Shown here piece after piece: positions 4,537 through 15,970 of a stretch of 23,233 nt of DNA; the stretch's first letter is position 1; every line of letters begins with the position of its first letter. Made by a program: the position numbers and the translations under genes. The notes beneath the pieces are model-generated. The model was given only the letters and a program-made list of their open reading frames with translations, did no database searches and had not been told where the DNA came from. This DNA is from a virus (taxonomy: Duplodnaviria > Heunggongvirae > Uroviricota > Caudoviricetes). The stretch lies in IMG/VR virus record IMGVR_UViG_2541047722_000009; one strand, written 5' to 3'.

Positions 4537-4589
4537 GGGCGGCAGAGCAGTCACGGAGTAAAACTGATACCGCCAAACGTCACCAGAAA
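4537..4589 (-). ncRNA. dicF: DicF small RNA (antisense regulator of ftsZ and other mRNAs), processed from the dicB operon transcript
   Basis: Reverse complement of 4537-4589 reads TTTCTGGTGACGTTTGGCGGTATCAGTTTTACTCCGTGACTGCTCTGCCGCCC, matching recalled K-12 DicF, followed by a T-tract (4531-4536 on minus strand). Confidence 0.9.
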
Positions 4590-7411: not shown

Positions 7412-8020
7412 GATCAAGAAGATCAAAACACTATGGTCCATGGCGTAAAAAACGCCACGAACCAGGCAGGGGATGTTCAGACCGTCAATCTTGGTCAGCC
7501 AGCAGGCACGACACCGGAAGCCGATTCAGCGTATGCGCTGAAAGCCGATTCGGGCGCTGTGCAGCAGGTGATGACCGCAAGGCCGGAGCAATCACACCAA
7601 CTGCAGCAGCCCGAAGCCGATTCCGCCATTCAGCGGGAAGCCGATCGGGTAGTCCCGGAAAACACCGGGCAGTCTGTGGGACGAGTGGATTATCCGGATG
7701 TGTTCGAACAGGTCTGGCGGGAGTACCCGTTGCGTGCTGGGGCAAACCCGAAGAAATCCGCTTTCAGTGCCTGGAAGGCCAGATTACGCGAGGGGGTGCC
7801 ACCAGAGGCCATGCTGGATGGCGTGAGGCGTTACGCAAGATACTTGGCGGCTACCGGGAAAACGGGAACGGAATTTGTTCAGCGAGCGACGACGTTTTTT
7901 GGACCGGACCGGAATTTTGAGAACCCCTGGTTGCTCCCGGTAAGCGGCACGAACAACCAGCGTTGTGTGAATCATATTTCTGAACCGGATAACGAAATTC
8001 CGCCGGGCTTCAGGGGGTAA
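7346..8020 (+). CDS. Putative replication protein, C-terminal part (low-complexity acidic linker plus conserved C-terminal domain); precise start uncertain
   Basis: 224-aa ORF in a different frame from 7210-7392, overlapping it by 47 nt. DKDTDKDTDQED linker is encoded by the tandem repeat. C-terminal region looks like a conserved globular domain. Confidence 0.5.
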   Translation: MSREVTLMSRRVTTDKDTDKDTDQEDQNTMVHGVKNATNQAGDVQTVNLGQPAGTTPEADSAYALKADSGAVQQVMTARPEQSHQLQQPEADSAIQREADRVVPENTGQSVGRVDYPDVFEQVWREYPLRAGANPKKSAFSAWKARLREGVPPEAMLDGVRRYARYLAATGKTGTEFVQRATTFFGPDRNFENPWLLPVSGTNNQRCVNHISEPDNEIPPGFRG

Positions 8021-8060
8021 GTGTTAATTTCTGGTCATGAGGTAATTTTCAGGAGGGCTT

Positions 8061-8483
8061 GTGGCAAAAGTTTTTACACAAGAAGAGCGGGAAAAAATTA
8101 AAGGACAGGTTGTTGAACTCGTACGCCAGAGTGGGCGTGAGACGTTACGGCAACTGGAAGTCAAGACAGGTGCGACAAGATATCTGATGAGCGTTCTCGC
8201 AAGAGAGCTGGTTGCCAGCGGCGATGTATGCAACTCTGGTTACGGGTTATTCCCGTCTGAACAGGCGCGTAAGGACTGGCAAAATGCCCGTAAAAAGCTC
8301 TCAAGGGCAAAGCTGAAGAAACCATCTGCGGTTGATCCGGACCTTATCTGGTCATTACCTGACGGAGAAATACGTCGCTACGACAGGCGTCAGAACATAA
8401 TCTGTCGCGAGTGCCGGAAGAGTGAAGTTATGCAGCGCATATTGTCGTTTTATCAGGGTGATGTTCGGTATTTATTGAAGTGA
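8061..8483 (+). CDS. Hypothetical protein (possible DNA-binding protein) in the replication module
   Basis: 140-aa ORF, GTG start with AGGAGGG RBS at 8051-8057. No family recognised by eye. Confidence 0.6.
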   Translation: MAKVFTQEEREKIKGQVVELVRQSGRETLRQLEVKTGATRYLMSVLARELVASGDVCNSGYGLFPSEQARKDWQNARKKLSRAKLKKPSAVDPDLIWSLPDGEIRRYDRRQNIICRECRKSEVMQRILSFYQGDVRYLLK

Positions 8484-8614
8484 CGAGATTAAAGTGCATT
8501 AGTTCAGATGCAAATTGACATTTTGTGGCACAGGGTAGAGCTAGCGTGGTTGTCCGCTTTGTGCCAATAGCGGACATTGCTGGCTCATGGTATGTTAGTT
8601 TAAGGAGGCAGGTT

Positions 8615-9637
8615 ATGCCCTGTATTTCGCTGTGGTATAATAGTTGCGCAATTGATACAAGGGAGCGTTACATCGTGAAAATTGTTTTCGAGGTTAATGG
8701 AAAGAAAGTTCCACTAAAATCTTTAAAATACATAAGCAAAAAAGATCAACTCGAAGTAATGAAAAACTGGTTCTTTGAAAACTTTGAAGATCCGGCAAAT
8801 GCTTGTCCGTATGAAAGTAGAGAAGGTGGCTATGCTTACATATATGGCGGGCCGTATGATGCGAGCGAAGAACTACAATCCATCTTCGGTCAATATGTTA
8901 AATCTGAGTATATTGAGGAATTAGTAGATGAATTACAAACACAATGTTTTGACTGGTCTGGAAACTCAAATAATATAGATGATTGGTACGATGATGATAT
9001 CTACGACGCTGTAACGTCTTCCGGTAATCCGTATTTAAAATTCATTGATAATATCGATAAAATAAAAAAACTTGCAAAAGATAAAACTGAACAACAGCAA
9101 AAAAACCACTTGCTTAGTTTGCTCTACACGAATGTTATTACAGCTTTGGAAACGCTTTATGTTGAGCTATTCATTAATTCTATAGAGAAAGATGATGTCT
9201 ACATAGCCAATTGTATAGAAAAAGGTAAGACTGAATTTAAAGTAAGCAAAGATATTGCTGCGTTGCCTTTCAAGGGTGAACCCATCGAGAAAATTAGGGG
9301 AGAGCTAATCAGGTCAATCAAGGAACACTTGATCAGTGCAAGCTGGCATAGCACTAAAAAGGTAATCGACCGCTATGAAGCTACATTCGATATAAAAGTA
9401 CAAAAAGACTGTCCGATAGAAGCTATTGAATTGGCAACCCTCAATCGAAATCACTTAGTGCATCGTGGTGGAAAGGATAAAGAAGGGAACCTCGTAGTGA
9501 TTACAGACCAGGATCTTGAAACGCTGATTGAAAATGCATCGAACCTGGCAATTATGCTCTACAACAGTTTAAATGTAGCAACGAATAAAACCACCATTTT
9601 GCAACCAGATGACAAACCGTTCATTCATGAATTTTAA
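8615..9637 (+). CDS. Cargo protein A of AT-rich two-gene cassette: uncharacterized protein with C-terminal R-x4-H (HEPN-like) motif; candidate abortive-infection/defense effector
   Basis: Start taken at ATG 8615 (AGGAGG at 8603-8608, 6-nt spacer). Alternative GTG 8675 (AAGGGAG RBS, preceded by extended -10 TGgTATAAT at 8633-8641). Track ORF begins at 8525. Motif LATLNRNHLVHRGG encoded at ~9446-9463 in a predicted helical C-terminal region. Sharp drop in GC from ~8640. Confidence 0.7.
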   Translation: MPCISLWYNSCAIDTRERYIVKIVFEVNGKKVPLKSLKYISKKDQLEVMKNWFFENFEDPANACPYESREGGYAYIYGGPYDASEELQSIFGQYVKSEYIEELVDELQTQCFDWSGNSNNIDDWYDDDIYDAVTSSGNPYLKFIDNIDKIKKLAKDKTEQQQKNHLLSLLYTNVITALETLYVELFINSIEKDDVYIANCIEKGKTEFKVSKDIAALPFKGEPIEKIRGELIRSIKEHLISASWHSTKKVIDRYEATFDIKVQKDCPIEAIELATLNRNHLVHRGGKDKEGNLVVITDQDLETLIENASNLAIMLYNSLNVATNKTTILQPDDKPFIHEF

Positions 9638-9652
9638 TAGCGCAGGTCATAC

Positions 9653-10654
9653 ATGGATATTCGCACACGAAAGACAAAATTTTTAGAGTCGTTAGATTCA
9701 ACTGAAGTGATACGCAAAGCAGTAAGTCTCGCTATAGATTGCATTATTGATAATCATAATAGTAATGAAGATACCCCCTTAGTTATTACCAGCTATGATG
9801 ATCTCTGTAGAATCCAGGTGCTAAATTATGTACAGGAGTTTTGCGAAGCTGCATTCCCTGATATGGATGAATATTACTTTAGTCCTAACATACTTCGCAT
9901 CAACGGCAAGACTAGTGAAGAAGCTTGTATTAACTTAATTAAACTCTTAAGAAGTACAAAAGGCATGCTATTCTGGTCCGATGCCCCATCGTGGTTCGCT
10001 AGCCTCCCCGACGGATTATTCCATGTTGTTAACATTGATCAAAAAATCGTTACTCGCGGCCTTAATAAGAAAAACTCTAAGCCGACAATAATCAATAAAG
10101 ATTACAGTGTAGATACACTACTATCAGAGCTATTTTTGAATGGCGCACACATGGAGCAACCCAACGTACACAACGTTTCTGAGGGAAACATGAAGTTCTA
10201 TGATGAATGCCATGCTGGATTAATCAGACCAATACCCGCTCCAATAGGCGCGTCATACGATGAAGAGATCACAATTAATTCTCCAGATTGGCAAAAGCTC
10301 GCGTGTGTAGCTTTACGCCGCTATCAGTCGAAGGAATGTCATGACGGAATGCAATGGGATACAACCGATCATGGTTGGACTGATGTAATCGCGTATCCAT
10401 TCGTCGAAGAAATACAATCAATGGATAATAGTGGTTATCGACAATGTTTAGTTGGGCTGGTCACAATAAACAATTCAAATGCAAATTCTCCGTACCTATC
10501 TACCGTTTGGATACATCCATTTTATCGCAGGAGAGGGTTATTAAGTAAGTTATGGCCAAAATTACAAGAGTTATATGGAAGTAACTTCGAAATTGAGCGA
10601 CCTAATGAAAATATGAAAGCATTTCTGAAAAGTGCGAAACACGCAGATTACTAA
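9653..10654 (+). CDS. Cargo protein B of AT-rich two-gene cassette: uncharacterized protein, C-terminal region with GNAT-like motif pattern
   Basis: 333-aa ORF 15 nt downstream of gene A (operon). AT-rich codon usage. C-terminal LVGLVTI…WIHPFYRRRGLLSKLWPKL…NENMKAFLKSA resembles GNAT beta4-alpha3 (motif A) and motif B. Confidence 0.75.
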   Translation: MDIRTRKTKFLESLDSTEVIRKAVSLAIDCIIDNHNSNEDTPLVITSYDDLCRIQVLNYVQEFCEAAFPDMDEYYFSPNILRINGKTSEEACINLIKLLRSTKGMLFWSDAPSWFASLPDGLFHVVNIDQKIVTRGLNKKNSKPTIINKDYSVDTLLSELFLNGAHMEQPNVHNVSEGNMKFYDECHAGLIRPIPAPIGASYDEEITINSPDWQKLACVALRRYQSKECHDGMQWDTTDHGWTDVIAYPFVEEIQSMDNSGYRQCLVGLVTINNSNANSPYLSTVWIHPFYRRRGLLSKLWPKLQELYGSNFEIERPNENMKAFLKSAKHADY

Positions 10655-10970
10655 TTTATGAATCAGTCTGTGGAGTTAGGGTTGGTGTCAACAAGTAGGG
10701 TAAGAGCCTCAACGTGATGCTATGCCGACCTGCTCCCTGAGAATTCACACAGAAGGCTGCTAGCAATGTCTGCAGATCGCTCAAAGCGGACTAGAAGGTT
10801 AGCTTGCGTCGGACTTGGCGTATTTAAAGAAGTGCTGGTGGTGACTGGTTGTTGTGTTCCATTTCTACAGAACAAAATCACAGAAACTATACCCAATAGT
10901 TATATTGAATCAATGATGAGACAGCCTCATATTTATCAGAACTGGTGTACGTCCAATACAGGAGGTTGTC

Positions 10971-11060
10971 GTGCTGGTTCTCAAATGTGCGCTAGCTATT
11001 GCGGCTGTAATGGCAATTTATTGTCTTGCTGTTGTTCTTATGGATCGCCTTTCTGATTGA
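10971..11060 (+). CDS. Possible small hydrophobic peptide (29 aa, MLVLKCALAIAAVMAIYCLAVVLMDRLSD)
   Basis: GTG start 5 nt after a perfect AGGAGG (10960-10965). Single predicted TM helix. Lies in a different frame from the Cys-rich 96-aa track ORF. No homolog recognised. Confidence 0.3.
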   Translation: MLVLKCALAIAAVMAIYCLAVVLMDRLSD

Positions 11061-11271
11061 TTTTATATTGGCGAGGTGACGGGAGTTAAGTAGAATTGCT
11101 GCGGGTGCTTGAGGCTATCTGCCTCAGGCATGAACACCAAAGGCAGATAGAGAAAAGCCCCAGTTAATATTACGCGTCCTGCAAGACGCTTAACATTAAT
11201 CTGAGGCTCAATCTATGAACGGCAAATCTAGGTTAGCCTCTTACGTGCCGAAAGGCAAGGAGAAGCAGGCT

Positions 11272-11427
11272 ATGAAGCAGCAAAAGGCGATGTTAATCGC
11301 CCTGATCGTCATCTGTTTAACCGTCATAGTGACGGCACTGGTAACGAGGAAAGACCTCTGCGAGGTACGAATCCGAACCGGCCAGACGGAGGTCGCTGTC
11401 TTCACAGTTTACGAACCTGAGGAGTAA
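11272..11427 (+). CDS. hokD: Hok/Gef family type I toxin (HokD/RelF-like)
   Basis: 51-aa product MKQQKAMLIALIVICLTVIVTALVTRKDLCEVRIRTGQTEVAVFTVYEPEE, near-identical to recalled K-12 HokD (RelF). AGGAG RBS. Internal Met of the 70-aa track ORF. Confidence 0.9.
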   Translation: MKQQKAMLIALIVICLTVIVTALVTRKDLCEVRIRTGQTEVAVFTVYEPEE

Positions 11428-11497
11428 GAGACCCGGCGAGGGAGAAATCCCTCGCCACCTCTGATGTGTCAGGCATCCTCAACGCACCCGCACGTAA

Positions 11498-11522
11498 CCC
11501 GCTTCGGCGGGTTTTGTTTTTT
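11498..11522 (+). terminator. Rho-independent terminator downstream of hok (CCCGC-UUCG-GCGGG + U-tract)
   Basis: 5-bp GC stem with UUCG tetraloop followed by TTTTGTTTTTT. A perfect 9-bp hairpin with GAAA loop precedes it at 11435-11456. Confidence 0.65.
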
Positions 11523-11594
11523 CCTGGCATTCTGGTTTACAATTCGCACGCCAGCCTGAACAACTGGCACCTGCTGCGCCAGCAGAGACAACCG

Positions 11595-11873
11595 ATGGCG
11601 CACGATACCAAATTACACAATTCTGATGATTCTGCCGTCTTTGCCAGCAGGCACGGGCGGCGTTCCCGCACTTTCAAATCTGACTGGTTCCAGCATCCCC
11701 CATGCACTGAAGAACAGGCCGAGTGGCTAATTCAGTGCTACCGCAGACACGGATACGAGATTAAGAAAGCCCTCAGCCTCGATTATCGTCACTGGATAAT
11801 CTCCGTCAGGCTTCCTTACTCCGAACGATCACCGCGTCCGTCCCGCACATTCCAGCAACGCATCTGGAGGTAA
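11595..11873 (+). CDS. Hypothetical small basic protein (Rem-position)
   Basis: Internal ATG of the 135-aa track ORF, chosen because the upstream part of that ORF contains the hok terminator. Arg-rich product. Synteny with Qin hokD-rem-ydfU. Confidence 0.4.
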   Translation: MAHDTKLHNSDDSAVFASRHGRRSRTFKSDWFQHPPCTEEQAEWLIQCYRRHGYEIKKALSLDYRHWIISVRLPYSERSPRPSRTFQQRIWR

Positions 11874-11874
11874 C

Positions 11875-12921
11875 GTGCGAGTATTACTTCGACCTGTTCT
11901 GGTACCGGAACTCGGGCTGGTGATCGTTAAGCCGGGCCGTGAATCCATGCCGGTATTCCACAATACCCGGGTACTGGTGGAGCCGGAACCGAAAAGCATG
12001 CGTAATCTGCCGTCCGGGGTTGTTCCTGCCGTTCGCCAGCCGCTAGTGGAAGACAAAACATTGCTGCCGTTTTTCAGTAACGCACGGGTGATTCGTGCTG
12101 CTGGTGGTGCTGGTGCATTGTCTGACTGGCTGTTGCGCCATATTAAATCCTGCCAGTGGCCACACGGCGATTATCATCACAGCGAAACCGTCATTCACCG
12201 TTATGGTACCGGCGCAATGGTGTTGTGCTGGCACTGCGACAACCAGCTGCGTGACCAGACATCCGAATCACTCGAGCAACTTGCTCATCAAAACCTGTCA
12301 GCATGGATGATTGACGTCATACTCCATGCAATGAATGGCTCGCAGGAACGGGAATTATCGCTGGCTGAATTATCCTGGTGGGCGGTCCGCAATCAGGTGG
12401 CGGACGCGCTACCGGAAGCGGTATTACGTCGTTCGCTGGGGTTGCGTGCGGAAAAAATCCGCTCAATGTACCGTGAAAGCGACATCGTACCGGGAGAGCA
12501 GACCGCCACCAGCATACTGAAGCAGCGCACAAAAAATCTTGCGCCGCTGCCTCACGCCCACCAGCAAAACCCGCCACAGGAAGAGACGGTGGTCAGCATT
12601 GCCGTTGATCCTGAGTCTCCGGAATCTTTCATGAAACGACCTAAACGTCGCCGCTGGGTTAACGAGAAATACACACGCTGGGTGAAGACACAGCCGTGTG
12701 CGTGTTGTGGTAAGCCAGCCGACGATCCCCATCACCTGATTGGTCATGGTCAGGGCGGAATGGGGACAAAATCTCACGATATTTTCACGCTACCGCTGTG
12801 TCGGGAGCATCACAACGAGCTTCATGCGGATCCTCTGGCGTTCGAAGAAAAGCATGGTTCTCAGGTTGATTTAATTTTTCGTTTTCTTGATCACGCCTTT
12901 GCAACTGGCGTGCTTGGGTAA
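11875..12921 (+). CDS. YdfU-like protein (DUF968 family) with C-terminal Cys/His cluster
   Basis: 348-aa ORF, GTG start with GGAGG RBS. C-terminal CACCGKPADDPHHLIGHGQGG…CREHHNELH resembles recalled YdfU/DUF968. Nin-region position upstream of rusA. Confidence 0.8.
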   Translation: MRVLLRPVLVPELGLVIVKPGRESMPVFHNTRVLVEPEPKSMRNLPSGVVPAVRQPLVEDKTLLPFFSNARVIRAAGGAGALSDWLLRHIKSCQWPHGDYHHSETVIHRYGTGAMVLCWHCDNQLRDQTSESLEQLAHQNLSAWMIDVILHAMNGSQERELSLAELSWWAVRNQVADALPEAVLRRSLGLRAEKIRSMYRESDIVPGEQTATSILKQRTKNLAPLPHAHQQNPPQEETVVSIAVDPESPESFMKRPKRRRWVNEKYTRWVKTQPCACCGKPADDPHHLIGHGQGGMGTKSHDIFTLPLCREHHNELHADPLAFEEKHGSQVDLIFRFLDHAFATGVLG

Positions 12922-12933
12922 AAGAGGTGACTG

Positions 12934-13308
12934 ATGCTCATAGATTTGGTTTTACCTTACCCGCCGACGGTGAACACTTACTGGCGACGCCGTGGCAGCA
13001 CATATTTTATCTCGGAGGAGGGAAAGCGTTATCGCCGGGCTGTGGCGCTTATTGTTCGCCAGCAGCGGCTGAAATTAAGCCTGTCCGGAAGGCTGGCGAT
13101 AAAGGTGATTGCAGAGCCACCGGATAAGCGTCGTCGCGACCTGGACAATATCCTGAAAGCACCGCTGGATGCGCTGACGCATGCGGGAGTGTTAATGGAC
13201 GATGAGCAGTTTGATGAAATCAATATCGTTCGTGGTCAGCCAGTATCTGGTGGACGTATGGGGGTGAAGATTTACCCCATAATGCATGAAGAGCAGGTCA
13301 AAAAATGA
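12934..13308 (+). CDS. rusA: Holliday junction resolvase RusA
   Basis: 124-aa ORF. MLIDLVLPYPPTVNTYWRRRG… and …DLDNILKAPLDALTHAGVLMDDEQ match RusA family signatures. AGAGGTGA RBS. Confidence 0.9.
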   Translation: MLIDLVLPYPPTVNTYWRRRGSTYFISEEGKRYRRAVALIVRQQRLKLSLSGRLAIKVIAEPPDKRRRDLDNILKAPLDALTHAGVLMDDEQFDEINIVRGQPVSGGRMGVKIYPIMHEEQVKK

Positions 13309-15797: not shown

Positions 15798-15873
15798 GGC
15801 CCTTTAGCTCAGTGGTGAGAGCGAGCGACTCATAATCGCCAGGTCGCTGGTTCAAATCCAGCAAGGGCCACCA
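15798..15873 (+). tRNA. tRNA with CAU anticodon, most similar to E. coli tRNA-Ile2 (lysidine; ileX/ileZ-like); Met not excluded
   Basis: Manual cloverleaf: acceptor GGCCCTT/AAGGGCC, D-stem GCTC/GAGC, anticodon loop CUCAUAA, T-loop TTCAAAT, 3' CCA encoded. Anticodon arm matches my recollection of ileX. Confidence 0.85.
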
Positions 15874-15880
15874 TCACATA

Positions 15881-15957
15881 CCGCCATTAGCTCATCAGGA
15901 AAGAGCGCCAGCCTTCGAAGCTGGTTGCGCGGAGTTCGGGTCCCCGAAGGCGGTCCA
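15881..15957 (+). tRNA. tRNA-Arg (anticodon UCG), slightly non-canonical T-arm
   Basis: Manual fold: acceptor 6/7 bp, anticodon stem CCAGC/GCTGG with loop CUUCGAA, CCA encoded. T-loop TTCGGGT has G at position 58 and the T-stem has one mismatch. Confidence 0.65.
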
Positions 15958-15970
15958 TTATCTGTATCCT

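Follow-up and report, generated by a model that had tools for sequence, protein, structure and literature searches.

A predicted complete hok/mok/sok type I module and a separate 29-codon open reading frame beside the cargo slot of an Escherichia coli lambdoid prophage

Toxicity is known for RelF/HokD, the product of the hokD gene (relF) in the Qin prophage of E. coli K-12. Among related loci that have been studied experimentally, the closest to the one described here is hokW-sokW of Sakai prophage 5 (Sp5), an Stx2 phage of E. coli O157:H7 (Takada et al. 2021, PMC8621323), for which the toxicity of HokW and the antitoxin activity of sokW were demonstrated, along with dependence on RNase III and Hfq and a role in phage release (PMC8621323). 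Protection was lost when the sokW promoter was mutated at its -10 element (PMC8621323). HokW, a close relative of the protein considered here, is 44% identical to R1 Hok (PMC8621323), whose hok/sok locus (parB, IncFII) is plasmid-borne. For K-12 and the ECOR strains, the hok loci of the chromosome reportedly gave no post-segregational killing (Pedersen and Gerdes 1999, cited in 10.1101/2025.08.07.668861), and editing of the Tyr47 codon has been reported for K-12 hokD (PMC5630033).

This study concerns a stretch of DNA of 23,233 nucleotides (hereafter, the window), which is a lambdoid prophage adjoining ompW and matches E. coli UTI89 as well as other ST95 strains at 100% identity. An original prediction had drawn a single interval, 10655-11522, around a hok-type toxin gene, its leader and a small hydrophobic open reading frame (ORF), and all of the features it named were recovered, in place or a few bases off. 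Here, the interval is resolved into two independent lambdoid-prophage modules, namely an ordinary and complete hok/mok/sok type I locus of the hokD/hokW lineage (11068-11521) and a separate small ORF, here called orf29; this layout, jointly with the hok/sok identification, is assigned a probability of about 0.8. The hok/sok part is already known, i.e., it is annotated in RefSeq and has a 93%-identical, experimentally studied twin.

Cargo slot and elements of the hok/mok/sok locus

The left part of the interval does not belong to the hok locus. Its first base falls on the stop codon of a cargo gene, and 10655-10776 (plus strand) is the 3' flank of a two-gene cargo cassette that varies among prophages and is common only to loci with the same cargo; the remainder of the interval does hold the features ascribed to it. 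Homology to other genomes and to IMG/VR loci mostly starts at 10764-10777. The variable cargo slot lies between the DUF977 gene and approximately 10777-10948, about 500 bp upstream of the relBE insertion site, and the genes upstream of hok belong to PHROG 17908 and PHROG 16994, both without an assigned function. To the right of the slot is a moderately conserved intergenic stretch (10777-10957), with a nucleotide diversity of 0.17-0.26 versus 0.067 for orf29, in which promoter-like hexamers are present without being conserved and no ORF is conserved among alleles. Two longer ORFs were rejected as genes: one on the minus strand (10720-10896) is broken in most alleles, and one of 96 aa (10766-11056) varies in open length from 12 to 118 codons among alleles and carries radical variants.

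A consensus scan places a predicted hok promoter (TTGGCG-17 nt-TAGAAT) at 11068-11096 on the plus strand, and its hexamers are retained in most loci with hok. It ends 7 nt 5' of the first base of an Rfam match to the sok model (RF01794; 11103-11277; 113.3 bits, gathering score 59), which covers model positions 1-157 of 157. From this match and the fold, the full-length hok mRNA is predicted to comprise about 419 nt (11103-11521, plus strand). Its minimum-free-energy fold (-175.4 kcal/mol, z = -9.3), in which a long leader stem is visible, is closed by pairing between the 5' and 3' ends: the tac element GGGUGCUUGAGG (11103-11114), at the 5' end, pairs with the fold-back inhibition (fbi) element CCUCAACGCACCC (11477-11489) in both the minimum-free-energy and the centroid folds. 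The fbi element is conserved within the lineage. A 5' metastable hairpin (GAGGC-UAUCU-GCCUC, GAGGCTATCTGCCTC) can be read directly at 11111-11125, and the alternative partner of the hairpin sequence, GGCAGATAG, lies at 11142-11150, where CUAUCUGCC, the 3' half of the hairpin, can pair with GGCAGAUAG instead. Both of these elements fall inside the full-length Rfam match, which bears out the earlier description of a hok-type leader with alternative pairings. At the other end of the mRNA, a 9-bp hairpin with a GAAA loop (11435-11456), read directly and seen in the fold, occupies the 3' UTR and shows a compensatory A-U to G-C change relative to hokW of Sp5. It is followed by fbi and by an intrinsic terminator at 11496-11522 (7-bp stem, UUCG loop and T tail; stem-loop 11496-11513). 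The two downstream hairpins noted earlier are real, but they form the 3' end of the hok mRNA together with fbi and are not extra elements.

The toxin gene hokD (11272-11427, plus strand) encodes 51 aa and was correctly recognized as HokD/RelF-type from the start: its product matches Pfam HOK_GEF at 77.3 bits (cut-off 22) and PHROG 251, and in UTI89 it is annotated by RefSeq as WP_000813256.1, 'type I toxin-antitoxin system toxin HokD'. The mok reading frame of 70 codons (11215-11427, plus strand) has a Shine-Dalgarno (SD) sequence GAGG at 11203-11206 and an ATG at 11215, and stays open and in frame through hok, an arrangement that would allow mok and hok to be translationally coupled. An upstream mok-type start without an intervening stop occurs in 60 of the 79 aligned sequences, 10 of which have no hok, and the frame is annotated as MokW-like or as a gef homologue in phages HannyBb and VT2-Sakai. 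That mok and hok share a frame was also considered as a peculiarity of this locus and rejected, since the IncFII R1-type locus has the same in-frame mok. Within the Tyr47 codon region, a TACG motif read directly at 11410-11413 is a candidate site for A-to-I editing by TadA, which would convert Tyr to Cys; the surrounding TTACGA is retained in most loci.

On the opposite strand, a sok promoter is predicted at 11230-11258, with a -35 element TTGCCT (11258-11253), a 17-nt spacer and a -10 element TAACCT (11235-11230) that matches the consensus at only 3 of 6 positions; the stretch is identical to the aligned stretch of Sp5 hokW-sokW. The corresponding Sok-type RNA is predicted to measure about 70-75 nt (minus strand, inferred ends 11150 and 11223), with a short unpaired 5' tail over the mok start codon, a long hairpin and a U tail, and the minus strand from 11226 to 11148 folds at -32.9 kcal/mol (z = -6.2). 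At the level of sequence, a Sok-type antisense gene overlapping the mok initiation region is thus present, which answers the earlier question of a Sok-like RNA with the promoter, its identity to that of sokW, the tail, the hairpin and the U tail. The tail and its target (11210-11229) make up the most variable segment of the locus (diversity 0.29).

Compared with hokW-sokW, the locus is 93% identical at the nucleotide level over 11083-11499. There is no difference in the sok promoter region, the hok SD or codons 1-43 of hok, and the leader, the fbi element, the upstream in-frame mok start and carriage by a lambdoid prophage are shared. The two loci differ in segment 11210-11229, presumably giving a different antisense specificity, as well as in the terminator and in a few residues at the very C-terminus of Hok. 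They also differ in position, as the Sp5 locus lies near the right end of the phage genome and has no orf29 upstream, whereas the present one lies between the replication genes and the nin/Q region. The R1/IncFII locus has the same order of elements, i.e., tac, metastable hairpin (in the same arrangement), mok SD and ATG, conserved AGCCUCUUAC box, hok SD, fbi and terminator, with roughly 72% column identity overall. Its 5'-3' pairing is retained here through compensatory changes, tac/fbi being GGCGC/GCGCC in the R1-type locus and GGGUGC/GCACCC in this one.

A separable 29-codon reading frame upstream of the hok promoter

The small hydrophobic ORF with a perfect AGGAGG was confirmed: orf29 (10971-11060, plus strand) has a GTG start and 29 codons (MLVLKCALAIAAVMAIYCLAVVLMDRLSD), and the AGGAGG can be read directly at 10960-10965, 5 nt 5' of the start. 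It is predicted to encode a single-pass small membrane protein with a mean hydropathy of 1.81 and a hydrophobic core of 19 residues, and is most likely an inner-membrane peptide. Its attribution to the hok locus did not hold, because orf29 is a separable module that is found both with and without hok. The minimal shared unit spans 10948-11075, with its left edge defined by BL21 and its right edge by loci lacking hok. Across complete E. coli genomes, orf29 is present in 1895 of 5426 (35%), including BL21 and REL606, and amounts to roughly 2190 copies. RefSeq has no annotation for it in any of the 40 genome rows sampled. No family match was found in Pfam, NCBIfam, PHROG or PADLOC, and the peptide strings were not found in the literature searched. 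A search for a conserved promoter found none, and expression is most likely by read-through of the early-right operon of the prophage and not from an own promoter. A structured RNA or sRNA over orf29 was rejected, given that neither strand gave a fold signal and there was no Rfam match. The notion that a small hydrophobic ORF is a general feature upstream of hok was rejected as well, such an ORF being found at 1 of 47 hok loci from other species or paralogues, on an E. coli-like contig.

Several observations suggest, from sequence comparison, that orf29 is a coding sequence, and it is probably translated. The combination of AGGAGG, start codon and small hydrophobic ORF did not arise in any of 100 dinucleotide shuffles of the window. 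The ORF is intact in 31 of the 33 distinct alleles, and a variant with an in-frame deletion of one codon is also known. The GTG start and an SD core of GGAG or GGGG are kept in every allele group, with a spacer that is not the same in all of them, and the most divergent allele remains hydrophobic despite 19 substitutions. In the orf29 frame, 11 synonymous codon variants stand against 15 non-synonymous ones that are conservative (mean BLOSUM62 +0.33), compared with 5/23 and 4/24 in the other two frames. In a sample anchored on hok, diversity was 0.037, 0.039 and 0.093 at first, second and third codon positions, i.e., 2.4 times higher at the third.

The main alternative is that orf29 is untranslated and that 10948-11075 is conserved by recent divergence, or as a homology patch for the exchange of lambdoid modules on the right-hand edge of the slot. 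The breakpoints of cargo exchange do cluster just 5' of orf29, and the homologues, sought with a 40-aa query padded with in-frame upstream translation, share 78% identity or more and all come from Escherichia, which means that much of the conservation could reflect recent shared ancestry. Codon statistics can be read in the same direction: segregating sites are distributed 11/10/16 over the three codon positions, a skew that is not significant (p = 0.14), pairwise dN/dS (0.54) is little different from that of the other frames (0.58 and 0.73), and an overlapping alternative frame is likewise open in nearly all alleles. The missing RefSeq annotation also fits this view. Two frameshift or stop-loss variants, like the negative promoter search, likewise count against orf29 as a gene. 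Against it, however, speak the features listed above, i.e., the preserved SD core and GTG, the surviving hydrophobicity, the third-position diversity, the variant pattern and the shuffles. Moreover, the edges of the module fall just outside the SD and the stop codon in independent contexts. An untranslated orf29 is regarded as a possible but less likely explanation than a translated one.

Expected working of the hok locus and possible roles of orf29

By homology to R1 hok/sok and Sp5 hokW-sokW, a complete hok/mok/sok locus of this kind would be expected to work as follows. A stable hok mRNA of about 419 nt would be made from its own promoter, and the 5' hairpin would delay the final fold while the mRNA is synthesised. 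In the full-length RNA, tac-fbi pairing would keep the message closed to ribosomes and to Sok, until slow 3' trimming removes fbi and the leader refolds, making mok, and then hok via mok, translatable. The short and unstable Sok would pair with the mok start region, and RNase III would cut the duplex. Should the supply of Sok end, through loss of the element, shut-off of host transcription or prophage induction (the latter reported for hokW), Hok would be made and the inner membrane would be depolarised. Full toxicity of Hok may additionally need editing of TACG by TadA (Tyr47 to Cys). As the locus is part of a chromosomal prophage, the plasmid-stabilising role of R1 hok/sok is not applicable as such.

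It is conceivable that the locus is instead an inactive, passive relic like the chromosomal hok loci of K-12: hokA, hokB and hokC reportedly gave no post-segregational killing (cited in 10.1101/2025.08.07.668861), and Tyr47 has to be edited for the second Cys to be restored (PMC5630033). This seems quite unlikely, however, in view of the intact and conserved regulatory elements (diversity 0.007-0.037 for the leader, 0.012 for the hokD coding sequence), the lack of an IS element or truncation, unlike in K-12, and the activity of the near-identical hokW-sokW (PMC8621323).

Type I toxins can be as small as orf29, e.g., TisB and ZorO are 29 aa each. Together with YnfS (29 aa), they share with orf29 the size class and a hydrophobic single helix, but no sequence similarity, as was also found when YnfS was translated and compared. 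It is very improbable, though, that orf29 forms a tandem type I pair with hok, as a further toxin that has an antisense RNA of its own. Besides the small, hydrophobic, single-pass peptide of TisB/ZorO size, this idea draws on a minus-strand promoter-like site (TTAACT-18-TAAAAT, 11089-11060) aimed into the 3' end of orf29. That site is weak, with 9 of 12 matches and an 18-nt spacer, four such sites occur in the region against 1.4 expected, and its -10 element is altered or deleted in many alleles. Furthermore, neither a stable fold nor a terminator is seen on the antisense strand (z = +1.05), the leader on the sense strand is not unusually structured (z = -0.57), and no Rfam match covers orf29. 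Among the hallmarks of a type I toxin, orf29 thus has the hydrophobic peptide but, unlike type I toxins, neither an evident cognate antisense RNA nor a match to a toxin family. Similarity to hok is no higher than in shuffled controls, with local alignment scores of 16 for DNA (shuffles 17.3 +/- 2.1) and 28 for protein (25.4 +/- 4.5; reached by 581 of 2000 shuffles); a decayed hok paralogue was accordingly rejected despite weak tblastn matches to Hok transmembrane segments. No sign of a second type I toxin was found in the region.

The best guess for orf29 is an accessory membrane protein made on induction of the prophage, and no regulatory link between orf29 and hok is demonstrable. A more specific and rather speculative idea, held to be improbable, is that orf29 is a real, hitherto unnamed small inner-membrane protein of about one third of E. 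coli genomes and acts with Hok during prophage induction, e.g., as another membrane-active peptide or by modulating Hok insertion or the timing of lysis. If true, this would account for its frequent place directly before the hok promoter.

relBE and the origin of K-12 hokD

When 8000-13200 of the window was compared by blastn with K-12 relB-relE-hokD-rem-ydfU, the only matches were 11258-11521 (98%) and 11578-12921 (84%). No similarity to relBE was found within 8000-13200 (word size 11), hence the arrangement relB-relE-hokD does not occur here; the original prediction was right that relBE is absent. That 10655-11100 might be a degraded relBE remnant can practically be dismissed, as nothing 5' of 11258 matched K-12 relB-relE (blastn, word size 11) and the region consists instead of the 3' flank of the cargo cassette, conserved intergenic sequence and orf29.

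K-12 Qin hokD is 98% identical to the present gene over 11258-11521, with A46V as the single amino acid difference, and has the same downstream neighbours (a rem-like ORF, DUF968/ydfU and Q). The end of relE lies 71 nt 5' of hokD in K-12, and the junction of the relBE block with hok is at 11258, 14 nt 5' of the hok ATG. As a result, the promoter, tac, the mok start, the Sok target and most of the sok promoter are lost there, whereas they are intact in the present locus. In strain MEI4B-1023, the leader is intact up to 11273, followed by ISEsa1-ydfW-flxA-ydfV-relB-relE and then by hokD from 11258, so that the inserted block sits at the hok start codon with a 16-bp repeat on its flanks. Homology to K-12 from 11258 only, together with this intermediate, indicates by sequence comparison that K-12 relBE-hokD descends, in truncated form, from an intact hok/sok locus. 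The view that the cargo cassette occupies a relBE slot is not supported, as the relBE site is the hok start and the cargo slot is elsewhere, and the description of this locus as carrying cargo "instead of relBE" reverses the order of events, K-12 being the derivative.

The intermediate strain shows how the textbook relBE-hokD "operon" of K-12 arose: a block carrying relBE was inserted into an intact hok/sok locus at the translation start of hok, which leaves K-12 hokD without mok and sok. For its part, orf29 is a widespread and mostly unannotated ORF of 29 codons, which makes it a cheap candidate for small-protein validation.

The hok-sok locus and its prophage setting

Chromosomes of many E. 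coli strains, among them UTI89, APEC O1, S88, IHE3034, and ATCC 11775, match the query interval at 100% identity. In UTI89, the window forms a lambdoid prophage inserted next to ompW. Its left arm (integrase, excisionase, exonuclease, ydfD, dicB, ydfC, ydfB, and ydfA) is followed by a LexA-family repressor gene, Cro/CI-family, YdaT-family, and replication genes, the DUF977 gene, two hypothetical genes, a 618-bp gap without annotation, and then hokD, a 92-aa hypothetical gene, DUF968, RusA, and Q. An Rfam gathering scan of the window returned the DicF sRNA (4537-4588, minus strand) and, on the plus strand, three tRNA genes (15798-16044; Ile, Arg, and Arg in RefSeq) and two STnc100 copies (16123-16313 and 16591-16800).

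The hok (HokD/RelF-like) toxin gene of the original prediction is a 51-aa ORF at 11272-11427 (plus strand), with a Pfam HOK_GEF match of 77.3 bits and the RefSeq name hokD. The structured leader was recovered as well: Rfam RF01794 (sok) matches at full length (11103-11277, 113.3 bits; threshold 59), and this match takes in both the hairpin GAGGCTATCTGCCTC at 11111-11125 and the competing GGCAGATAG at 11142-11150. A sigma-70-like site (TTGGCG-17-TAGAAT, 11068-11096, plus strand) is located 7 nt ahead of the first matched base. The segment 11103-11521 folds at -175.4 kcal/mol (z = -9.3 versus shuffles), and the minimum-free-energy and centroid structures alike pair the 12 bases at the start of the hok mRNA (GGGUGCUUGAGG) with CCUCAACGCACCC at 11477-11489, a predicted fold-back of the 5'-end element tac onto its 3' partner fbi (fold-back inhibition), which is the defining trait of hok mRNAs. 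The upstream in-frame start, mok, has its SD (GAGG, 11203-11206) and ATG (11215) on the plus strand and opens a 70-codon frame continuing into hok. Downstream, the anticipated 9-bp hairpin with a GAAA loop (11435-11456) and UUCG terminator (11496-11513, then a T tail) were both found.

On the minus strand, a sok promoter is predicted (TTGCCT at 11258-11253, a 17-nt spacer, and TAACCT at 11235-11230), past which the predicted fold has a short tail left unpaired, a long hairpin, and finally a U tail (-32.9 kcal/mol, z = -6.2); this element is a putative Sok-type antisense RNA that would overlie the mok start codon together with its SD. Beneath the Sok tail, the segment 11210-11229 shows far more variation than any other part of the locus (diversity 0.29, with 0.007-0.037 elsewhere in the leader), as expected for an antisense-target specificity determinant that both strands encode at the same time. 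At least seven sequence classes occur there among otherwise near-identical hokD/hokW loci, which suggests that hok loci of co-resident prophages use several Sok specificities with no cross-reaction between them.

The locus shares 93% identity across 11083-11499 with hokW-sokW of Sakai prophage 5, and the two do not differ at all in the sok promoter region, the first 43 hok codons, or the hok SD. HokW is toxic and is neutralised by sokW from its own promoter, promoter mutations remove protection, and the antitoxin effect is partly RNase III- and Hfq-dependent; under mitomycin C, sokW RNA falls and HokW rises, and deletion of hokW-sokW halves phage release (PMC8621323). The element order is the same throughout as in an IncFII R1-type hok locus, in which mok is likewise in frame with hok; tac and fbi differ in a compensatory manner (GGCGC/GCGCC in R1-type, GGGUGC/GCACCC here). 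The hok/sok pair is already known and annotated, and a nearly identical relative has been studied by experiment; the only unexplored piece of the interval is orf29, a 29-codon ORF upstream of it.

Some further features of hok were observed. The 3' end of the mRNA (11436-11517, plus strand; GAAA hairpin and terminator) gave a sub-threshold Rfam isrK match (27.8 bits versus 50; E = 1e-4 in a 161-nt search). IsrK, an Hfq-binding sRNA of Salmonella Gifsy-1, may have originated as the 3' end of a hok-type transcript; alternatively, the match could be a mere resemblance of two hairpins. E. coli FY26 carries a tandem duplication with two hokD copies within a single match (NZ_CP101741.1 8356-9596). 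Nearly all aligned loci retain a TACG motif (11410-11413) at the hok Tyr47 codon; TadA reportedly edits the equivalent Tyr codon of K-12 hokD to Cys (PMC5630033). Enrichment of hok in prophages has been described previously (10.1101/2025.08.07.668861).

Distribution and coding potential of orf29

The predicted orf29 is present at 10971-11060, with AGGAGG 5 nt upstream, and is carried by 1895 of 5426 complete E. coli genomes. It lacked RefSeq annotation in all 40 sampled genome rows (in one BL21-lineage row, just the truncated DUF977 gene overlaps it), and is named a hypothetical or membrane protein in a few records, including E. coli B REL606. No family match was obtained in Pfam, NCBIfam, PHROGs, or PADLOC, and relatives (at least 78% identity) are confined to Escherichia sequences. 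Anchoring on the hok leader gave 95 IMG/VR loci, of which only 26 contain a complete copy; conversely, hok is missing from 18 of 108 orf29-anchored loci, where homology stops 15 nt past the orf29 stop codon, at a DLP12-like nin region. In BL21, homology starts just ahead of the orf29 SD. Since these boundaries define its left (BL21) and right (hok-less loci) limits, the shared unit is SD plus ORF, separable from hok.

Translation of orf29 is favoured, at a probability of roughly 0.6. The frame is intact in 31 of 33 distinct alleles, with a one-codon in-frame deletion variant also seen, and its codon variants comprise 11 synonymous and 15 conservative non-synonymous changes (mean BLOSUM62 +0.33), against 5/23 (-1.57) and 4/24 (-0.46) in the other two frames. 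In the sample anchored on hok, the three codon positions have diversities of 0.037, 0.039, and 0.093, and the ORF as a whole 0.067 versus 0.17-0.26 upstream. The combination of AGGAGG, start codon, and small hydrophobic ORF did not arise in dinucleotide shuffles of the window. Counting against coding, segregating sites at codon positions 1, 2, and 3 number 11, 10, and 16 (p = 0.14), pairwise dN/dS is 0.54, scarcely under that of the other frames, an overlapping frame is likewise open, and a search for a conserved promoter found none. As a gene for a small membrane protein, orf29 is plausible but unproven, and its distribution is narrow.

Nothing around orf29 points to a type I toxin system: its leader is unstructured (z = -0.57), the antisense strand has neither fold nor terminator (z = +1.05), and there is no Rfam match and no detectable relationship to hok. 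Two disrupted forms were seen, namely an internal 11-bp deletion between ATTTATTGT repeats in E. coli 09A19CPO009 (L005), giving a frameshift and 24 aa, and a different 11-bp deletion in L004/L176 that removes the stop codon (35 aa) along with a candidate antisense -10 element.

The cargo slot and the origin of relBE-hokD

Upstream of orf29 lies a variable cargo slot, between the DUF977 gene (8061-8483) and about 10777-10948, with right-hand junctions clustering at 10764-10777, 10891, 10918, and 10948. The slot is a hotspot in Qin/ompW-type lambdoid prophages (L003-L006, L174-L176). Here it holds two genes of unknown function (PHROG 17908 and PHROG 16994; 8525-10654, more likely 8615-9637 and 9653-10654); elsewhere it contains SIR2 (one to two strains), QueH and a methyltransferase fragment (another strain and also phage HannyBb), a different hypothetical gene (one further strain), or an IS3-family element (another), and it is empty in BL21. 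With an AGGAGG at about 8603, the first gene more likely begins at 8615 (340 aa) than at 8525. Pfam matches of the cassette were sub-threshold only (HEPN_RES_NTD1, 22.1 bits; GNAT, 19.9 bits), and PADLOC returned no match for it.

The cassette had been thought to replace relBE in the corresponding slot of K-12 Qin. The absence of relBE stands, as do all the other features first listed, and the interpretation holds in part: hok and its leader had been identified correctly, but the slot reading is reversed, the cargo slot being a site separate from the relBE insertion at hok. Similarity to K-12 runs from 11258, 14 nt ahead of the hok ATG, to 11521 (98%) and picks up again at 11578; because it starts only at 11258, K-12 hokD is without the promoter, tac, mok start, Sok target, and sok -10 that are all present in the window. 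One strain, MEI4B-1023 (L176/L177; NZ_CM149567.1 2270000-2276500), has the order DUF977, SIR2, orf29, an intact hok leader to 11273, ISEsa1 (partial), ydfW, flxA, ydfV, relB, relE, and hokD from 11258 on. The leader is broken at the hok ATG, the second hok copy, from 11258, lies 3' of the inserted block, and a 16-bp repeat (AGGAGAAGCAGGCTAT) is found on either side of this block. Given this intermediate and its flanking repeat, the relBE-bearing block is an insertion into the hok translation-initiation region, and the K-12 arrangement is a derivative with a further deletion. The MEI4B-1023 intermediate explains how the K-12 relBE-hokD arrangement originated.
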